Source: Burkholderiales bacterium (GTDB taxonomy: Bacteria > Pseudomonadota > Gammaproteobacteria > Burkholderiales > SG8-39). Taken from it: 64,000 nt of DNA. Location of the stretch: assembly GCA_035702665.1 (NCBI GenBank), contig DASSQD010000069.1, positions 14,201-78,200 on the forward strand, given 5' to 3'. Made by a program: the position numbers and the translations under genes. Shown here piece after piece: positions 35,230-57,448 of the stretch; position 1 is the stretch's first letter; each line of letters opens with the position of its first letter. The notes beneath the pieces are model-generated. The model was given only the letters and a program-made list of their open reading frames with translations. It was not told where the DNA came from and made no database searches.

Positions 35230-36255
35230 ATGAAGACCACCGTAGCCATAGATTGCATGGGCGGCGATCACGGCCCGCACGTCACGGTGCCGGCGGCGCT
35301 CAATTTCCTCAAGTCCAGTCCCGACGTGGACATCGTGCTGGTGGGATTGCGCGACGCCGTCGAAGCCGAGCTCAAGGCGCGCGGCGCGAAAGCCGGCACG
35401 CGCCTGCGGGTTCGCCACGCGAGCGAGGTCGTCGCCATGGATGAATCTCCCGCGCTCGCGCTGCGCAGCAAGAAGGACTCCTCGATCCGCGTCGCGGTCG
35501 ACCTCGTCAAGAGCGGCGAGGCGCACGCCTGCGTCAGCGCGGGCAATACCGGCGCGTTGATGGCGATTTCGCGCTTCGTGCTCAAGACGCTGCCTGGCAT
35601 CGACCGTCCAGCGATCATCTCTGCTCTGCCCAATCTTCGGGGAAGCACCTACGTGCTCGACCTCGGCGCGAACGTCGATTGCGCGCCCGAGCACCTGCTT
35701 CAGTTCGCCATCATGGGGGCGACGCTGGTCCAGGCGGTCGAACACAAGGAGCGACCCAGCGTCGGCCTGCTCAACATCGGCGAGGAGGACATCAAGGGCA
35801 ACGAAGTGGTGAAGCGGGCGGGCGAGCTGCTGCGCGACAGCGGGCTCAACTTCATCGGCAATATCGAGGGAGACGGCATCTACAAGGGCGAAGCCGACGT
35901 GGTCGTGTGCGACGGCTTCGTCGGCAACGTCATGCTCAAGGCGTCCGAGGGCATCGCGCAGATGGTGCGCAGCTTCCTCCGCGAGGAGTTCATGCGCAGC
36001 CCGCTCACGAAGCTCGCAGGCGTCGTGGTGATGCCGGTGCTGTTCGCATTTCGCAAGCGCCTCGATCCGCGGCGCTTCAACGGAGCGACGCTCCTGGGGT
36101 TGCGGGGGATCGTGGTGAAGAGCCACGGTTCGGCCGACGTGCTCGGATTCGGCCGCGCGATCGAGCGCGCCGCGGAGGAAGTGCGGAACGAGGTTCTGCA
36201 TCGGCTGATGCTCCGCTTTGGATCGCCCGAGACGGCCGAGGCGGCGAGCTCGTGA
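35230..36255 (+). CDS. plsX: phosphate acyltransferase PlsX
   Basis: [31 protein letters not shown]. Confidence 0.96.
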
Positions 36256-52164: not shown

Positions 52165-53103
52165 ATGGCACACGAGCATCATCACCACGACCATGACCAT
52201 CACGGCCATGATCACGGCCACCATCACCACGCGCCGCGCGACTTCGGCGTCGCCTTCGCGATAGGCATCGGCCTCAATTTCATTTTCGTCGTGGTCGAAG
52301 CGGTGTACGGCGTGCTCGCGCACTCGATGGCGCTGCTCGCCGACGCGGGGCACAATCTCTCCGACGTGCTCGCGCTCGCGCTCGCGTGGGGCGCGAGCCG
52401 GCTCGCGCGCCGGGAGCCCTCCGCGCGCTTCACCTACGGGCTGCGCAGCACCTCGATCCTGGCGGCGCTGGTCAACGCCGCGCTGCTGTTCCTGGTCACC
52501 GGCGGCATCGCCTGGGAGTCGATGCAGCGTCTCGTCGAGCCGGAGCCGGTCGCGAGCAAGACCGTGATCTGGGTCGCTCTCCTCGGGATCGTCGTGAACG
52601 CGACGAGCGCCGTCCCGTTCGCGAAGAGCGGCGGCGACCTCAATGTCCGTGCCGCCTTCCTGCACCTCGCGGCCGACGCTGCGGTCTCGCTCGGCGTCGT
52701 GGTCGCGGCGCTCGTGACCCTTTCGACCGGCTGGCTGTGGCTCGACCCGGTGATGGGGCTCGCGATCGCGCTGGTCATCATCGTCGGCACCTGGGGGCTG
52801 CTCAAGGACTCGGTGACCTTGGCCCTCAACGCCGTGCCCGCGCACATCGATCCGGACAAGGTGCGGGCTTACCTCGCGACGCTGTCAGGCGTCTCGGAAG
52901 TCCACGACCTGCACATCTGGGCCATGAGCACCACCGAGACCGCGCTCACCGTGCACCTCGTCATGCCCAAGGGACACCCGGGCGACGCCTTCACCGCGGA
53001 AATCTGCAAGGAGCTGCGCGAGCGCCACCACGTGCACCACGCGACCGTGCAGATCGAGACCGGCGCGCAGCCCTGCGAGCTCGCGCCGGATCACGTGGTG
53101 TAG
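52165..53103 (+). CDS. cation diffusion facilitator (CzcD/ZitB-type Zn/Co/Cd efflux)
   Basis: His-rich N-terminus MAHEHHHHDHDHHGHDHGHHHH. TM core HSMALLADAGHNLSDV..FLHLAADA. C-terminal VHDLHIW. Confidence 0.9.
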   Translation: MAHEHHHHDHDHHGHDHGHHHHAPRDFGVAFAIGIGLNFIFVVVEAVYGVLAHSMALLADAGHNLSDVLALALAWGASRLARREPSARFTYGLRSTSILAALVNAALLFLVTGGIAWESMQRLVEPEPVASKTVIWVALLGIVVNATSAVPFAKSGGDLNVRAAFLHLAADAAVSLGVVVAALVTLSTGWLWLDPVMGLAIALVIIVGTWGLLKDSVTLALNAVPAHIDPDKVRAYLATLSGVSEVHDLHIWAMSTTETALTVHLVMPKGHPGDAFTAEICKELRERHHVHHATVQIETGAQPCELAPDHVV

Positions 53104-53202
53104 TAGTTGAATACATACGGAAATTCCGCGCACGAGGCGCCTATCCTGTGATAGTAAGCACGAAACCGAGCTGCAACATGCAAGTTACACGGCAAGAGAC
53201 AG

Positions 53203-53294
53203 AGTCAACGACTTGAATTCTTTGCCAGATCAGATTTCAGTCGGGGGCTAGCGTCTAGATAGAGGACATTTCGGAAGTTCACTATACGTTAGGC
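53203..53294 (+). repeat. attC-like site 1
   Basis: Inverse-core-like AGTCAAC (53203-53209) and core GTTAGGC (53288-53294). Inner arms cTTGAAttc / gaagTTCAc pair with one extra base. Confidence 0.5.
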
Positions 53295-53302
53295 TGCGAC
53301 AA

Positions 53303-53626
53303 ATGCCCCGTCCTCCGAAACGCTTTCTGATATCAATGCTTCTCGGGTTTGGGTCGGCGATTATCTTGATTGTGGTCACGTTCTTTAGTGCTCTAGAGTT
53401 TCGCGATTTCGCAGCATTCGTTTGGGCTCCGGGCGAGTTTCTTGTTCGCAGCTCTAACGCCATTTGTCCACCGTTCGGGGTCGAGTGTTTCCTCGGCTCG
53501 CGCCGGCAAGGTGCGCATCACCTTTGGCTCTTGATTTGCTTGCTTATTTCTTGGGGCTTCATGCTGTCGGTCGTCTGGTGGTGCGGTCTCAGCCTAACCG
53601 CGCGTTCGAGAGCGGACGCGCTGTGA
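53303..53626 (+). CDS. cassette ORF 1: small hydrophobic protein, unknown function
   Basis: 107 aa with three hydrophobic stretches (LISMLLGFGSAIILIVVTFF; HLWLLICLLISWGFMLSVVWW). ATG lies 8 nt after the core. The stop lies inside attC 2. Confidence 0.5.
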   Translation: MPRPPKRFLISMLLGFGSAIILIVVTFFSALEFRDFAAFVWAPGEFLVRSSNAICPPFGVECFLGSRRQGAHHLWLLICLLISWGFMLSVVWWCGLSLTARSRADAL

Positions 53627-53684
53627 AGCGGCGCGTCCTTGCGTCGTGTTTCCCGCGGCGCGCCGCTCAACGCGAACGTTAGGG
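53592..53684 (+). repeat. attC site 2 (canonical architecture)
   Basis: GCCTAAC-CGCGC-GTTCGAG ... CTCAAC-GCGAAC-GTTAGGG, 93 bp. The left inner repeat carries an unpaired G. Confidence 0.75.
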
Positions 53685-53689
53685 CGCCA

Positions 53690-54247
53690 ATGCGAATTGC
53701 CACGTCAGTCATGCTGTGTTCGCTTGCAAGTTTGCTCGCCTGCCAATCCACGACGACGGAAGCACCTTTCGCATCGCCTCCTTCGATTGCGTTGCCACCA
53801 GAGGGTGAGTCTTTGCTGTATCTCTTTCGACCCACGCTCGACCGGGTCGGCAAGTCCGAGAAACCAACTCTTACCGTCGATGACCAACTGGTTGGCGCGG
53901 TAAGCCACTCAACCTACACGTTCGTCTCGCTCAAACCAGGACGCCACCGCTTGAAGTTGATTCCGGGGCCAGGCGAGTCGTCCGGGTGGAACACCGAGGT
54001 CGGGTTTGAAGTTACGTCGGGTGAGACCTATTTCGTTGCCATCTGGAATCAAGATCAACGAGATACCCGACGTGCGATCCTGCCCATACCAGTCCCGGGG
54101 TCGCTGTACTTCGTTTCCATCGGCGGCCCATTCGGTCCGGAACCGAGGGTTCGGTTTGAGCCAGTTGATAGAGACGTCGGAGTTACCGCGCTTGTTGGCC
54201 TACGCTTCTTTGAGGCGCAGGCCAGTCACTTGACCGCGCAGCCATGA
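53690..54247 (+). CDS. cassette ORF 2: lipoprotein, DUF2846-like
   Basis: MRIATSVMLCSLASLLAC has a lipobox. LLYLFRP..TVDDQLVG..YTFVSLKPGRHRL..GETYFV is DUF2846-like. ATG lies 5 nt after the core. Confidence 0.6.
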   Translation: MRIATSVMLCSLASLLACQSTTTEAPFASPPSIALPPEGESLLYLFRPTLDRVGKSEKPTLTVDDQLVGAVSHSTYTFVSLKPGRHRLKLIPGPGESSGWNTEVGFEVTSGETYFVAIWNQDQRDTRRAILPIPVPGSLYFVSIGGPFGPEPRVRFEPVDRDVGVTALVGLRFFEAQASHLTAQP

Positions 54248-54251
54248 CCAC

Positions 54252-54344
54252 ACCTCTCAAGTGCCGCGCTAACATTTCGCTGCATCCGACGGTCTTGTCG
54301 CCCCTGCGCGGTGCCAAGACCGCGGCTGAGTTCGGCCGTTAGAG
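54252..54344 (+). repeat. attC-like site 3 (degenerate left end)
   Basis: Core GTTAGAG (54338-54344). The left end is either CCTCTCAAG (54252) or GCTAAC (54268-54273). Central palindrome CCGACGGTCTTG / CAAGACCGCGG. Confidence 0.5.
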
Positions 54345-54349
54345 GGCAT

Positions 54350-54883
54350 GTGCGCAGCTTGCTTATTACGGTCGTCGTAGCGTTGGCCGCAGCTTGCTCA
54401 CCATCTGAGTATGGTTTGAGCAGTAAGGATCCGGTGCATATGGCGATGCTGACAACTCAGATGCGAGATGCGGGGATCCCGTTCCGGACAAGTGCAGATG
54501 GAATGCTTTTGTACAAGCCTGAATACCGCGCGCAAGTAGAAGCAATCGATTCACGGCTGAATCGCCCTTATGTGGACGCCATCTTCGAGCGCGACGACTA
54601 CGCCAAGATTTATTTGGCTCAGCTCCTCGCGATGAATCGTAGCTACCACCTTTACACCACAGCCGGGAAGCAAGCCGTGCGATGGTGGCCTGAAAGCCCT
54701 GACGAGCCAATAATACTCAATGACCAAGTGGCGGTCGCTTGGCAGAAAGCTCAACCGACTGTCGTCGCCAAACCATGCGATCGGCAAGCGAAGCCCTCTA
54801 ACCGCGCACCCCAACCGGACGCGCGCACAAGCGCTTCGCCGTGCAGGGGTTATCGGCCGCGCCCCGGTGAGCGCGAACGTTAG
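54350..54883 (+). CDS. cassette ORF 3: lipoprotein, unknown function
   Basis: GTG start lies 5 nt after the core. (M)RSLLITVVVALAAAC has a lipobox. The TAG stop lies inside the core of attC 4. Confidence 0.55.
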   Translation: MRSLLITVVVALAAACSPSEYGLSSKDPVHMAMLTTQMRDAGIPFRTSADGMLLYKPEYRAQVEAIDSRLNRPYVDAIFERDDYAKIYLAQLLAMNRSYHLYTTAGKQAVRWWPESPDEPIILNDQVAVAWQKAQPTVVAKPCDRQAKPSNRAPQPDARTSASPCRGYRPRPGERER

Positions 54884-54885
54884 GC
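54796..54885 (+). repeat. attC site 4
   Basis: CTCTAAC-CGCGC... ...GAGCGCGAAC-GTTAGGC, 90 bp. Shares AACCGCGC and GCGAACGTTAGG with attC 2. Confidence 0.65.
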
Positions 54886-54964
54886 CTCAGATGACGCGAC
54901 AAAGCAAACGTCAACGCTGGATTGGGCCGCCCTACCGACCAATAGCGATCAACGAGGAGTTGCG

Positions 54965-55402
54965 ATGATGACCAATTCACAAACCCCCGCGTGGGCAACC
55001 GCAGCCGTGCTCATAGGACGCTTTGTTTTCGCCGCAGTTTTCCTCATGGCACTGATATTCAAGGTGATGGATATCGATGGCACGGCGGCTTATATCGCGG
55101 CGGCCGGCTTCCCTGTTCCGAAGGTTCTTGCCTGGTTGGCGGCGCTGTTCGAGCTGGCGCTGACCGGTTGCCTCCTGACCGGAGCTTTCTTCGCTGAAGC
55201 CGCATTGCTTGCGGCGGCTTACGTGCTCTTCCTCGCTTTTGCGTTTCACGGTCCGTCGCATTGGAGCGGAAGTCAGACGGAGTTCGGCTTCTTCGTCGAT
55301 CACTTCACGTTCATAGCGGGCCTTCTGTTTGCGGCCGTGCATGGACCCGGTACACGGCTGGCGATCACTCTCCGCTTCCTCAGGACGCCCGCGAAAACGT
55401 GA
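54965..55402 (+). CDS. cassette ORF 4: DoxX-family membrane protein
   Basis: Four hydrophobic helices in a DoxX-like layout (GRFVFAAVFLMALIFKV..AAYIAAAGFP..ELALTGCLL). GAGGAG SD at 54954-54959. Confidence 0.7.
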   Translation: MMTNSQTPAWATAAVLIGRFVFAAVFLMALIFKVMDIDGTAAYIAAAGFPVPKVLAWLAALFELALTGCLLTGAFFAEAALLAAAYVLFLAFAFHGPSHWSGSQTEFGFFVDHFTFIAGLLFAAVHGPGTRLAITLRFLRTPAKT

Positions 55403-55459
55403 ACAACTCCACGTTAGCTGACCACCAGGTAGTTCCGCTCCGAGCTTAGGTCAGCCATC

Positions 55460-56104
55460 GTGTCCAAGGTTCGCGTTCTCAGCTTCGCAGTTTCGGTCGA
55501 CGGCTTCGGCGCCGGTCCGCTCCAGGACATGCAGAACCCGATCGGGGTGCGCGGCATGGAGCTCATGGAATGGTTCTTCCACACCCGCGCGTGGCGAAGC
55601 ATGCACGGCCAATCGGACGGGGAGACGGGCGTCGACAACGGCATGGCCGAGCGCGGCTTTGCCGGCATCGGGGCGTGGGTCCTCGGGCGCAACATGTTCG
55701 GGCCGGTGCGCGGCCCCTGGCCGGACGAATCCTGGCGCGGCTGGTGGGGCGAGGAGCCGCCGTATCACGTGCCGGTCTTCGTGCTGACCCGCCATCGCCG
55801 CGCGCCGCTCCGGATGGCCGGGGGCACGGAGTTCCGTTTCGTGACGGAAGGGATCGAGGCGGCGCTTGCGCAGGCGAAGGAAGCGGCCGGCGTCGGGGAC
55901 GTGCGCATCGGCGGCGGCGTCGCGACGGTCCGCCAGTATCTTCAGGCGCGGCTGATCGACGAGCTGCATCTCGCGATCCGGCCGGTCCTCATGGGCGCGG
56001 GCGAACGCCTGTGGGAGGGGCTGGACCTCGCGTCGCTGGGATACGAATGCTCCGAGGCGGTCGCCGGGGAGCGCGCCTATCACGTGTTCCTGAGGCGCCG
56101 CTAG
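55460..56104 (+). CDS. dihydrofolate-reductase-family protein (RibD C-terminal domain type)
   Basis: VRVLSFAVSVDGF..WVLGRNMF..PVFVLTRH..VRIGGGVATVRQYL..DELHLAIRPVLMGAGERL. Confidence 0.75.
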   Translation: MSKVRVLSFAVSVDGFGAGPLQDMQNPIGVRGMELMEWFFHTRAWRSMHGQSDGETGVDNGMAERGFAGIGAWVLGRNMFGPVRGPWPDESWRGWWGEEPPYHVPVFVLTRHRRAPLRMAGGTEFRFVTEGIEAALAQAKEAAGVGDVRIGGGVATVRQYLQARLIDELHLAIRPVLMGAGERLWEGLDLASLGYECSEAVAGERAYHVFLRRR

Positions 56105-56110
56105 CCGGAG

Positions 56111-56827
56111 CTACCAGGGAATCGGCTTCAGGGCCCGGAAGAATCCGCCCGTCGGACCGTCGTCGGGCAGGGTGGCCGCCCACACGATCGTCTTCACGCC
56201 TTCCTCGGGCTCGAGCTTCGCCTGCGGCCCGCCCATGTCGGTCTTCACCCATCCGGGGCACACCGAGTTGACGAGCACGCCCGTGCCGCCCAGCTCCGCG
56301 GAAAAAATGCGCGTCAGCGCGTTGAGCGCCGTCTTCGAGATACGGTAGGCGGGATAGCCGCCGCCCATGTCGTTGAGCTGCCCGAGTCCGGAGGAGACGT
56401 TGACGATGCGTCCGTAGCGGCGCTCGCGCATGCCCGGCGCGAGCGCCTGGATGACGCGATAGGCACCGAGCACATTCGTCTCGAAGGTCTCGCGAAGCAG
56501 GTCCGGCGGGATGTCGAGCGCGCTTTCGCTCAGGAGGCCCGCGGCGAGCGGGTTCTCGTCGCTCTCGAGCATCACGCCCGCGTTGTTGACGAGCGCATCG
56601 ATCGCGCCGATCTCCTCCAGCCGCGCGCAGCTCGCGTCGCTCGCGACGTCGAGCTCGACAGGACGGACGTCGAGCTTCTCGCCGCGGAGGAGTTTCGCGG
56701 CGGCTTCGGCATTGCGGAGGTCTCGCGAGGCGAGAAGGACGCGGTAGCCGGCGCGCGCCAGCTGGCGCGAGGTCTCGAGACCCAGGCCGCGGTTCGCTCC
56801 GGTGACGAGCGCGGTGCGCGCGGCCAT
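56111..56827 (-). CDS. classical SDR oxidoreductase (carbonyl-reductase-like)
   Basis: ALVTGANRGLG, NNAG, S...YRISK. ATG 56827 shares one base with the efp TGA. The 411-aa track ORF is a run-on into efp antisense frames. Confidence 0.85.
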   Translation of the reverse strand: MAARTALVTGANRGLGLETSRQLARAGYRVLLASRDLRNAEAAAKLLRGEKLDVRPVELDVASDASCARLEEIGAIDALVNNAGVMLESDENPLAAGLLSESALDIPPDLLRETFETNVLGAYRVIQALAPGMRERRYGRIVNVSSGLGQLNDMGGGYPAYRISKTALNALTRIFSAELGGTGVLVNSVCPGWVKTDMGGPQAKLEPEEGVKTIVWAATLPDDGPTGGFFRALKPIPW

Positions 56828-57393
56828 CAGGCGCGCTCGATGTACGCGCCGTCGTCGGTGTTGATCTTGATCTTCTCGCCGGTGCCGATGAAGGGCGGCA
56901 CCTGGACGACGAGCCCGGTCTCGGTCTTCGCGGGCTTGAACGACGTGGTGACGGTCGCGTTCTTGATCTCCGGGTCGGTCTCGGTGACGGTGAGCACGAC
57001 CGAGGGAGGGAGCTCCAGGCCGATCGGCTTCTCGTTGTAGAAGGTCACTTTCACGTCGGTGTTGGGCAGGAGGTAGCCGCTCTGTCCCTCGAGCATGTCT
57101 TCCGAGAGCGTGAGCTGCTCGTAGTTCTCCTTGTCCATGAACACGAAGCCGGTGCCGTCGTGGTAGAGGTACTGCATCTCGCGCGGCTCGACGAAGGCGC
57201 GCTCGACCTTGTCCTCCGTGCGGATGCGCTGGTTGGTCTTCGTGCCGCTGTCGATGTCCTTCATCTCGACCTGCATGAAGGCGCCGCCGCGTCCGCCGAC
57301 GTGCACGTGATAGCATTTGATGACGCGCCAGATCCGCTTTTCCCACTCGATGAGGTGGCCGATGCGGATATCGACTGCCAGGATCTTAGCCAT
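56827..57393 (-). CDS. efp: elongation factor P (Arg at loop tip)
   Basis: MAKILAVDIRIGHLI..HVHVGGRGGAFMQVEMKDI..VERAFVE..FMDKENYEQ..KPAKTETGLVVQVPPFI. ATG 57393 preferred over TTG 57408. Confidence 0.9.
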   Translation of the reverse strand: MAKILAVDIRIGHLIEWEKRIWRVIKCYHVHVGGRGGAFMQVEMKDIDSGTKTNQRIRTEDKVERAFVEPREMQYLYHDGTGFVFMDKENYEQLTLSEDMLEGQSGYLLPNTDVKVTFYNEKPIGLELPPSVVLTVTETDPEIKNATVTTSFKPAKTETGLVVQVPPFIGTGEKIKINTDDGAYIERA

Positions 57394-57448
57394 GGTTGTT
57401 CGCAACAAAAGGGCGGCATTTTATAACACCGGCGCAGCGAAGTCATCG

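Follow-up and report, generated by a model that had tools for sequence, protein, structure and literature searches.

In an integron, the integrase IntI joins the folded bottom strand of an attC site to attI, cutting between G and TT, and new cassettes enter at attI. A promoter on the intI/attI side drives cassette transcription. Arrays that have lost intI and become frozen are well documented, Xanthomonas being one example, and such an outcome is ordinary for integrons. Clusters of attC sites lacking an integron integrase, termed CALINs, were defined for IntegronFinder, and an intI pseudogene lay within 10 kb in 15 of 279 CALINs, which leaves ≈ 95% without one (Cury et al. 2016, PMC4889954). 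Here we describe an integrase-less cassette array in 64,000 nt of contig DASSQD010000069.1, from a metagenome-assembled genome (MAG) of a Burkholderiales bacterium; this whole stretch is called the window. The array lies between czcD, a cation efflux gene, and a RibD_C gene of the DHFR-like reductase family. We are highly confident that the locus is a sedentary chromosomal integron of a soil Burkholderiales lineage that has lost intI.

A CALIN-like array at this place had been proposed from the sequence alone (the original prediction), and it is supported by attC models, by cassette turnover among relatives and by the linkage of its attC family to intI elsewhere. The locus is a CALIN by definition: three same-strand attC sites lie within 1.3 kb and no IntI is found nearby (4 kb default; 10 kb control). 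It falls short of a complete integron only in lacking intI, as an attI site is predicted from homology and position. It is not a mobile resistance integron of classes 1–5, since it has no intI, no resistance cassettes and housekeeping neighbours.

Four GTTAG cores had been reported downstream of czcD, and all are present where they had been placed: GTTAGGC at 53288, GTTAGGG at 53678, GTTAGAG at 54338 and GTTAGGC at 54879 (sites 1 to 4 in this order). The TAG at 54881–54883 does fall within the last core. Seven of the eight matches to GTTAGRS in the window lie in 53288–54885. The longer pattern TAAC-N55-85-GTTAG occurs at three places only in the 64 kb, and these are sites 2, 3 and 4; with both strands counted it gave 6 matches, where 0.58 would be expected, and no shuffle out of 100 had as many. 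The inverse cores are GCCTAAC at 53592, GCGCTAAC at 54266–54273 and CTCTAAC at 54796. The R''...R' pairs GCCTAAC...GTTAGGG, GCGCTAAC...GTTAGAG and CTCTAAC...GTTAGGC are at attC-typical spacing (55–140 nt) and, in keeping with attC, the next cassette supplies the final one or two bases of R'. An inverse core had also been assigned to site 1; there, AGTCAAC at 53203 is part of a conserved attI-side block and no R'' box is found. The sequence said to be common to sites 2 and 4 is seen in both (AACCGCGC...GCGAACGTTAGG).

Single-sequence folding and Rfam did not settle the identity of these sites, and we therefore used a comparative approach. The bottom strands, folded singly, gave z-scores of −0.7 to −1.1 relative to shuffles, a measure that is not diagnostic in GC-rich DNA, and a search of Rfam (E-value mode, 50–58 kb) returned no relevant family. 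A family search pattern, CTAACMGCGC-N50-80-CGCGAACGTTAG, was taken from sites 2 and 4. Soil was the main source of the matching metagenome contigs, which number at least 120; several carried 2–4 co-oriented copies. In an alignment of 135 distinct sites as bottom strands (alignment A1), the common fold consists of an R-box helix, a small internal loop and a 12-pair stem. Compensatory double changes affect seven pairs of the L stem, in 31–77 sequences each, with UA, GC, CG and AU all seen. Paired cells made up 97.6% over the 135 sites, compared with 81.0% in shuffled alignments and 32–47% when the partner column was slid, and there were 381 double-change cells against 136 in shuffles. The unpaired columns predicted from the alignment consensus (85 and 89) are confined to the R''-side arm of the bottom strand. 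Folding of the bottom strands had been proposed as a check for extrahelical bases; these are predicted from the alignment consensus only, and the single folds were no better than shuffles. As judged from the aligned sequences, the consensus is the architecture of attC: R''/R', a central spacer, an L''/L' stem bulged on one arm and a variable loop. The family's L''/L' stem is matched by sites 2 and 4.

Two covariance models were built. R1 was made from the 135 pattern-found sites, none of which came from the window. To offset the bias of R1 towards the 21 pattern-fixed bases, a broader model, R2, was made from 60 R1-found sites in 12 array-bearing loci, many of them without a match to the pattern. 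The models place the following sites in the window:

53592–53684, minus strand: attC of cassette 1 (site 2); R1 64.6 bits, E = 4e-17; R2 75.6 bits, E = 1.9e-18
54267–54344, minus strand: attC of cassette 2 (site 3); R2 19.7 bits, E = 0.0046; R1 7.7 bits only
54796–54885, minus strand: attC of cassette 3 (site 4); R1 51.3 bits, E = 4e-13; R2 54.0 bits, E = 1.7e-12

Over the 64 kb, sites 2, 4 and 3 were the top three matches of R2, all on the minus strand, and R1 found nothing credible besides sites 2 and 4. The original prediction was to fall if an attC covariance model gave no significant matches; such matches were obtained, all on one strand, with models made from metagenomic sites and not with the attc_4 model of IntegronFinder. 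The model alignment predicts unpaired positions on the R''-side arm of site 2 at 53607 and 53611–53612. Site 3, with R'' = GCGCTAAC and R' = GTTAGAG, is located exactly between the stop of the second open reading frame (ORF) and the start of the third, on the same strand as sites 2 and 4; it appears to be a divergent member of the family that fits the stem with several mismatches. From these comparisons, sites 2, 3 and 4 are attC sites, which IntI would be predicted to recombine. Four palindromic attC-like sites had been proposed: sites 2, 3 and 4 were recovered by the models, and site 1 showed neither the fold nor a model match. Beyond the array, the best match of both models was at 36152–36236 (16–18 bits), a GC-rich hairpin without R boxes that we judged to be noise.

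Elsewhere, arrays of the same attC family adjoin integron integrases. In loci L090, L112 and L201, a divergent gene next to such arrays scored 469–476 bits with TIGR02249 (cutoff 265), and additional IntI homologues were found in L092, L158, L130, L175, L176, L203, L204 and L205. The IntI of L112 has > 8000 homologues at E < 1e-40. The top ones are 75–95% identical and named integron integrase, and the named organisms among them are Betaproteobacteria, Burkholderiales or Pseudomonadota MAGs. In the window itself, which extends 53 kb upstream and 8.5 kb downstream, tblastn with three IntI and one other tyrosine recombinase gave a best E of 0.047, in agreement with the earlier statement that it contains no tyrosine recombinase.

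Site 1 (53203–53294) was rejected as an attC: its bottom-strand fold had z = +0.24, neither R1 nor R2 matched it, and it is homologous to attI regions. The features on this side of the array are:

53135–53292, plus strand: intI–attI intergenic remnant, including attI (blastn to L112, L130, L198 and L155; alignment A3; L203)
53104–53134, no strand: junction between the czcD stop and the start of integron homology; 31 nt with no alignment to L112, L130 or L198

In the intI-bearing loci L112, L130 and L203, the spacer that runs from the intI start to the first cassette is homologous to the segment 53135–53292, as is the matching region of L198, L083 and L155. The last 34 nt of this segment (53259–53292; ATAGAGGACATTTCGGAAGTTCACTATACGTTAG) are identical to L112 and end in GTTAG. 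Further upstream, the blocks GGCGCCTATCCTGTGATA and CAACGnnTTGA are kept, and AGTCAAC at 53203 sits in the latter. Directly past GTTAG the sequences are unrelated, and the first cassette differs at each locus. Since the similarity stops after GTTAG, the attI crossover would be between G53288 and T53289. Homology and position thus identify site 1 as a putative attI site.

The same comparison indicates how much has been lost. In L112, 12 nt separate the ATG of intI from the block AGGCGCCTATCC to its right. Homology in the window starts exactly at this block (53135). The preceding 31 nt are unrelated and do not align to the intI start or ribosome-binding region of L112, L130 or L198; czcD ends at 53103. 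Because the homology ends ≈ 12 nt short of the would-be intI start, intI and its ribosome-binding site are gone, with no pseudogene, and attI has been kept. According to the original prediction, czcD occupied the place of both intI and attI; it does stand where intact relatives have intI, but the attI region persists at 53135–53292. A LexA-box-like palindrome, TACTGAACATGCATACAGTA, is present in L112 (1359–1378) and L203 (9800–10010, reverse strand), ≈ 60–80 nt upstream of intI in both, and with one substitution in L130. One half of this palindrome has been lost in the aligned segment of the window (≈ 53183–53205) and in L198, both of which are without intI. The pattern fits SOS control of intI in the family and decay after intI loss, and the diverged LexA-like region and left part of attI would be consistent with relaxed constraint after that loss.

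Loss of intI with retention of attI has occurred independently elsewhere in the family. In L198 (4199–5665), eight intI codons (MNQESRES) remain, fused to unrelated sequence, beside an intact attI-type region. In L083 (1–330), intI is truncated to its start and a 31-residue fragment. As these are independent deletions with different endpoints, intI loss seems to be common in this family. The intI remnant of L198 is followed by a gene for a 460-residue protein, by eye a class II fumarate hydratase (GSSIMPGKVNPTQSEA motif), and a run of imperfect AATTGAACCGCCnAGnnGCCnAGG-type repeats lies beside the truncated intI of L083.

The fall in G+C content (GC) that had been noted after the czcD stop was confirmed both in 300-nt windows and per segment. 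GC drops from 0.67–0.75 to 0.51–0.62 at ≈ 53050–55450 and returns to 0.69–0.73 beyond. By segment, it is 0.689 in czcD, 0.471 in 53104–53292, 0.575–0.589 in four cassette units (0.577 in cassette 1 and 0.585 in the unit with the DoxX gene) and 0.707 in the RibD_C gene. With flanks at ≈ 0.70, the composition of the cassettes is foreign. The units are:

53289–53678, plus strand: cassette 1; ORF 53303–53626, a 107-residue hydrophobic protein
53679–54338, plus strand: cassette 2; ORF 53690–54247, DUF2846 (Pfam 40.1 bits)
54339–54879, plus strand: cassette 3; ORF 54350 (GTG) to 54883, an orphan
54880–55412, plus strand: fourth unit; mini-ORF 54891–54968 and DoxX ORF 54965–55402 (Pfam DoxX 37.6 bits)
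55410–55462, no strand: right island edge; imperfect palindrome I17 with GTTAGCT (55413–55419), overlapping the RibD_C start codon

The ORFs are co-oriented and start 10–15 nt past a core, with the exception of the DoxX ORF, which starts 86 nt past the last one. Same-strand starts had been assigned after each core. Those at 53303 and 53690 hold. At the third core, the ATG at 54348 is out of frame and the in-frame start is the GTG at 54350; at the fourth, the ATG at 54891 opens a 25-codon mini-ORF only.

Two of the cassettes show complementarity between their start and the R'' end of their own attC. Cassette 1 begins with GTTAGGCTGCGAC, to which GTCTCAGCCTAAC at the head of its attC is 92% complementary (inverted repeat I10), and cassette 3 begins with GTTAGAGGGC, which pairs perfectly with GCCCTCTAAC at 54793 (inverted repeat I1). 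Locus L082 also shows a cassette start complementary to its own attC R'' end. Such complementarity is a hallmark of cassettes and is expected from a circle closed via one attC. The cassette 2 protein has a lipoprotein-signal-like N-terminus (LLAC/Q); its homologue in L082, 56% identical, lies behind an attC of the same family with a different upstream cassette. The N-terminus of the cassette 3 protein is lipoprotein-like as well (LAAAC/S). Against 5.8 billion proteins, the sole match of the cassette 3 protein was itself, annotated in a Burkholderiales MAG. The cassette 1 protein had no Pfam, NCBIfam or PADLOC match. Overall, the cassettes encode a small hydrophobic protein, two lipoprotein-signal-like proteins (one with DUF2846) and a DoxX membrane protein; PADLOC and NCBIfam gave nothing above cutoff for them, and no match to a resistance or defence family was found (Pfam included).

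An attC after the DoxX ORF was sought and rejected: there is no R'' and no R1 or R2 match, only GTTAGCT in a weak palindrome. That palindrome (55410–55462) folds no better than shuffles and is not matched by the attC models, and it may be a vestige of a last core site. The mini-ORF of the fourth unit (25 codons, MTRQSKRQRWIGPPYRPIAINEELR) begins 12 nt past the last core and its stop overlaps the DoxX start (ATGATGA), with GAGGAG just upstream; it could couple DoxX translation. A sigma-70 promoter scan of 52.9–56.3 kb found nothing, and terminator-like sites were at chance level. The gene czcD is co-oriented with the cassettes; it stops 185 nt upstream, and the interval contains no terminator-like site.

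The genes that border the array were compared with those of intact relatives.

52165–53103, plus strand: CDF-family cation efflux transporter gene (czcD/ZitB-like); left flank, outside the element; host-like GC of 0.689
55460–56104, plus strand: RibD_C gene (DHFR-like reductase family); Pfam RibD_C 61 bits; host-like GC of 0.707

The most informative relative, L203, is the 25-kb metagenome contig Ga0209647_1001013, which carries a complete integron. Its order is lhr, intI, an attI of the window type, 10 attC sites with ≈ 17 ORFs, an ORF without attC, RibD_C, dut and coaBC; its IntI is 92% identical to that of L112. The RibD_C protein of the window is 76.6% identical to that of L203 (865–1512) over all 214 residues and ≈ 65–72% identical, in two pieces, to the product of the terminal gene of L118 (354–994), where dut is next. 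RibD_C closes the array in the window, in L118 and in L203. Its GC is 0.707 in the window, and in L203 it is 0.636 versus 0.56 for the array. A homologue with 38% identity in L189 (2035–2553) lies between two weak attC matches (16.3–16.5 bits). We rejected RibD_C as a demonstrable fifth cassette, since it has the GC of the host flank and is always at the array end in the window, L118 and L203. It is treated here as a conserved boundary gene at the distal end; a fossil terminal cassette and a chromosomal anchor were both considered.

The window thus shares its attI type, attC family and distal RibD_C with an L203-type clade of soil Burkholderiales. The adjacency of intI and lhr recurs in L203, L204 and L205, which indicates that the family is a sedentary chromosomal integron. 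The expected cassette turnover was seen: relatives with the same platform (L203) carry different cassettes, and none of the cassette proteins of the window was found in L203 and related platform loci. Within the arrays of L203 (2948–6549) and L204 (1609–2491), we also observed an IS3-type transposase (HTH_Tnp_1 + rve) and cassettes for a BrnT toxin and a GGDEF protein.

On the left, the czcD product matches Pfam Cation_efflux (144.7 bits) and ZT_dimer, and TIGR01297 (243 bits). A scan of genome contigs for czcD relatives gave a best identity of 76%; 0 of 80 loci had nagZ or RibD_C synteny, and no empty-site comparison was gained. Look-ups of the exact czcD, RibD_C and cassette 2 proteins, and of one encoded at 62–64 kb, returned no record. 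In the window, czcD and SDR-efp flank the element, with housekeeping genes as neighbours (nagZ-like GH3, efp). Outside the integron island, GC is also lower in and around the EF-P gene (56827–57408; 0.61–0.65 versus ≈ 0.70 in neighbouring genes), a dip that probably belongs to this gene as such. Both junctions of the array are spanned by L001, a Logan assembly contig of 2960 nt that is 100% identical over 52703–55662.

Several points weigh against an integron that simply lost intI. The search pattern was taken from sites 2 and 4, so ≈ 21 of ≈ 90 positions in those two model matches agree by construction, and site 3 is only marginally significant (E = 0.0046, rough calibration). The putative attI is assigned by homology and position, and its left part differs from that of relatives (GCGTCTAGATAG versus GGTGTCTAATATAG). 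The fourth unit is without an attC, and its status as a cassette is suggested by GC and position. The 64-kb window contains no homologue of lhr, FCSD, cytochrome c, dut or coaBC; it thus has neither flank of the intact relatives, and more than a simple intI deletion is needed. With lhr, dut and coaBC absent, either the flanks have been rearranged on both sides or the gene order differs in this organism. The only backing for the czcD–attI junction is another assembly, L001, possibly made from the same reads. Finally, the window covers 64 kb of a 110.7-kb MAG contig, and an intI may be present elsewhere in the genome.

This last point leads to the strongest alternative, namely that the integron is split and not dead: a rearrangement would have parted attI and the array from an intI that survives elsewhere in the same genome and still excises and reshuffles the cassettes in trans. 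Rearrangement is one route to a CALIN, and about half of CALINs share a replicon with an IntI gene (Cury et al. 2016, PMC4889954). The attC sites at 53592–53684 and 54796–54885 look intact, and both flanks are unlike those of intact relatives, which indicates rearrangement. Set against this, intI is absent from the window and the array has just 3 attC sites, versus 10 in L203. Divergence from the intI-bearing relatives is seen in the region of the LexA-like box and in the left part of attI, as under relaxed constraint. We regard a split integron as unlikely, although it deserves to be taken seriously.

A different doubt concerns the junction itself. If the joining of czcD to attI were an assembly chimera, the true locus would have intI beside attI. 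The source is a MAG, and repeated attC sites and GC-shifted islands are trouble spots in short-read assembly. L001, however, is identical across both junctions, and L198 and L083 show independent intI deletions at other endpoints, so that a chimera is quite improbable. Less probable still is that the site was never a platform and that an IntI acting in trans inserted the cassettes at a chance GTT downstream of czcD. Insertion at secondary sites is an accepted route to CALINs (PMC4889954; 10.1101/2022.09.11.507474). Here, however, the ≈ 158 nt before the first cassette are homologous to an intI–attI spacer, including a block that lies beside the intI ribosome-binding site in relatives, and the distal RibD_C gene also closes the L203 and L118 arrays. 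That the repeats are generic intergenic palindromes (REP-like or terminators) unrelated to integrons can be dismissed almost entirely: single bottom-strand folds no better than shuffles and the lack of an Rfam match would agree with it, but the family covaries in attC architecture, its co-oriented arrays adjoin integron integrases, and cassette ends pair with their own R'' box.

For a sedentary integron that lost intI, the following history may be proposed. An ancestral IntI, close to the L112/L130/L203 type, would have been encoded divergently and to the left of attI. It would have inserted circular cassettes at attI, between the G and TT of GTTAG, to give the array attI – cassette 1 – attC – cassette 2 – attC – cassette 3 – attC – DoxX unit – RibD_C. 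A deletion or rearrangement could then have removed intI, with its endpoint ≈ 12 nt before the would-be start codon, and brought czcD beside the attI region. The array would now be static unless IntI were supplied in trans, from elsewhere in the genome or from an incoming element. Transcription might proceed from the remaining attI-side promoter region or by read-through from the co-oriented czcD. What we infer here is the sequence of these events, the inactivity of the array and the way in which it is transcribed.

A bolder version, which we consider doubtful, is that the block from attI to RibD_C is a conserved integron chassis of the soil Burkholderiales clade, with a fixed terminal pair (the attC-less ORF and RibD_C). 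Such a chassis would have survived intI loss repeatedly (in the window, L198 and L083), here behind a metal-efflux gene, with its frozen cassettes possibly co-opted into a read-through transcript of czcD. If this were true, attI remnants would be a general way to trace the parentage of CALINs without an intI pseudogene.

The locus leaves the understanding of integrons unchanged. It documents, base by base, one route to a CALIN, in which intI is lost and attI and cassettes are retained, and it indicates that the family of the parent integron and the position of the breakpoint can be read from homology on the attI side. The pool of soil cassettes gains four genes from it, including an orphan.

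Among known systems, the locus resembles the ilvD-anchored chromosomal integrons in that it belongs to one lineage with a homogeneous, lineage-specific attC family, in which inactivation or deletion of intI recurs and leaves frozen arrays. Unlike the ilvD-anchored elements, this family is found in MAGs of soil Burkholderiales and Betaproteobacteria and is anchored by lhr beside intI and by RibD_C–dut at the far end (L203, L204, L205 and L118). Compared with L203 itself, the window has the same attI type and attC family, a terminal RibD_C with 76.6% identity and likewise an attC-less ORF just before RibD_C; it differs in having no intI, 3 instead of 10 attC sites, other flanks and no cassette in common, and its intI-side flank has been replaced by czcD, unlike the L203-type anchors. 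The right end of the array recalls the 3' conserved segment of class 1 integrons (qacEdelta1-sul1), in which terminal genes became fixed after attC loss or truncation. Here an attC-less DoxX unit is followed by RibD_C, but the analogy is one of mechanism only, as there is no sequence relationship, no known resistance function and no Tn402 or Tn21 context. Most CALINs retain no trace of their origin. The window is likewise without a pseudogene, but its attI region survives and, unlike in most CALINs, this remnant identifies both the type of the parent integron and the endpoint of the deletion.

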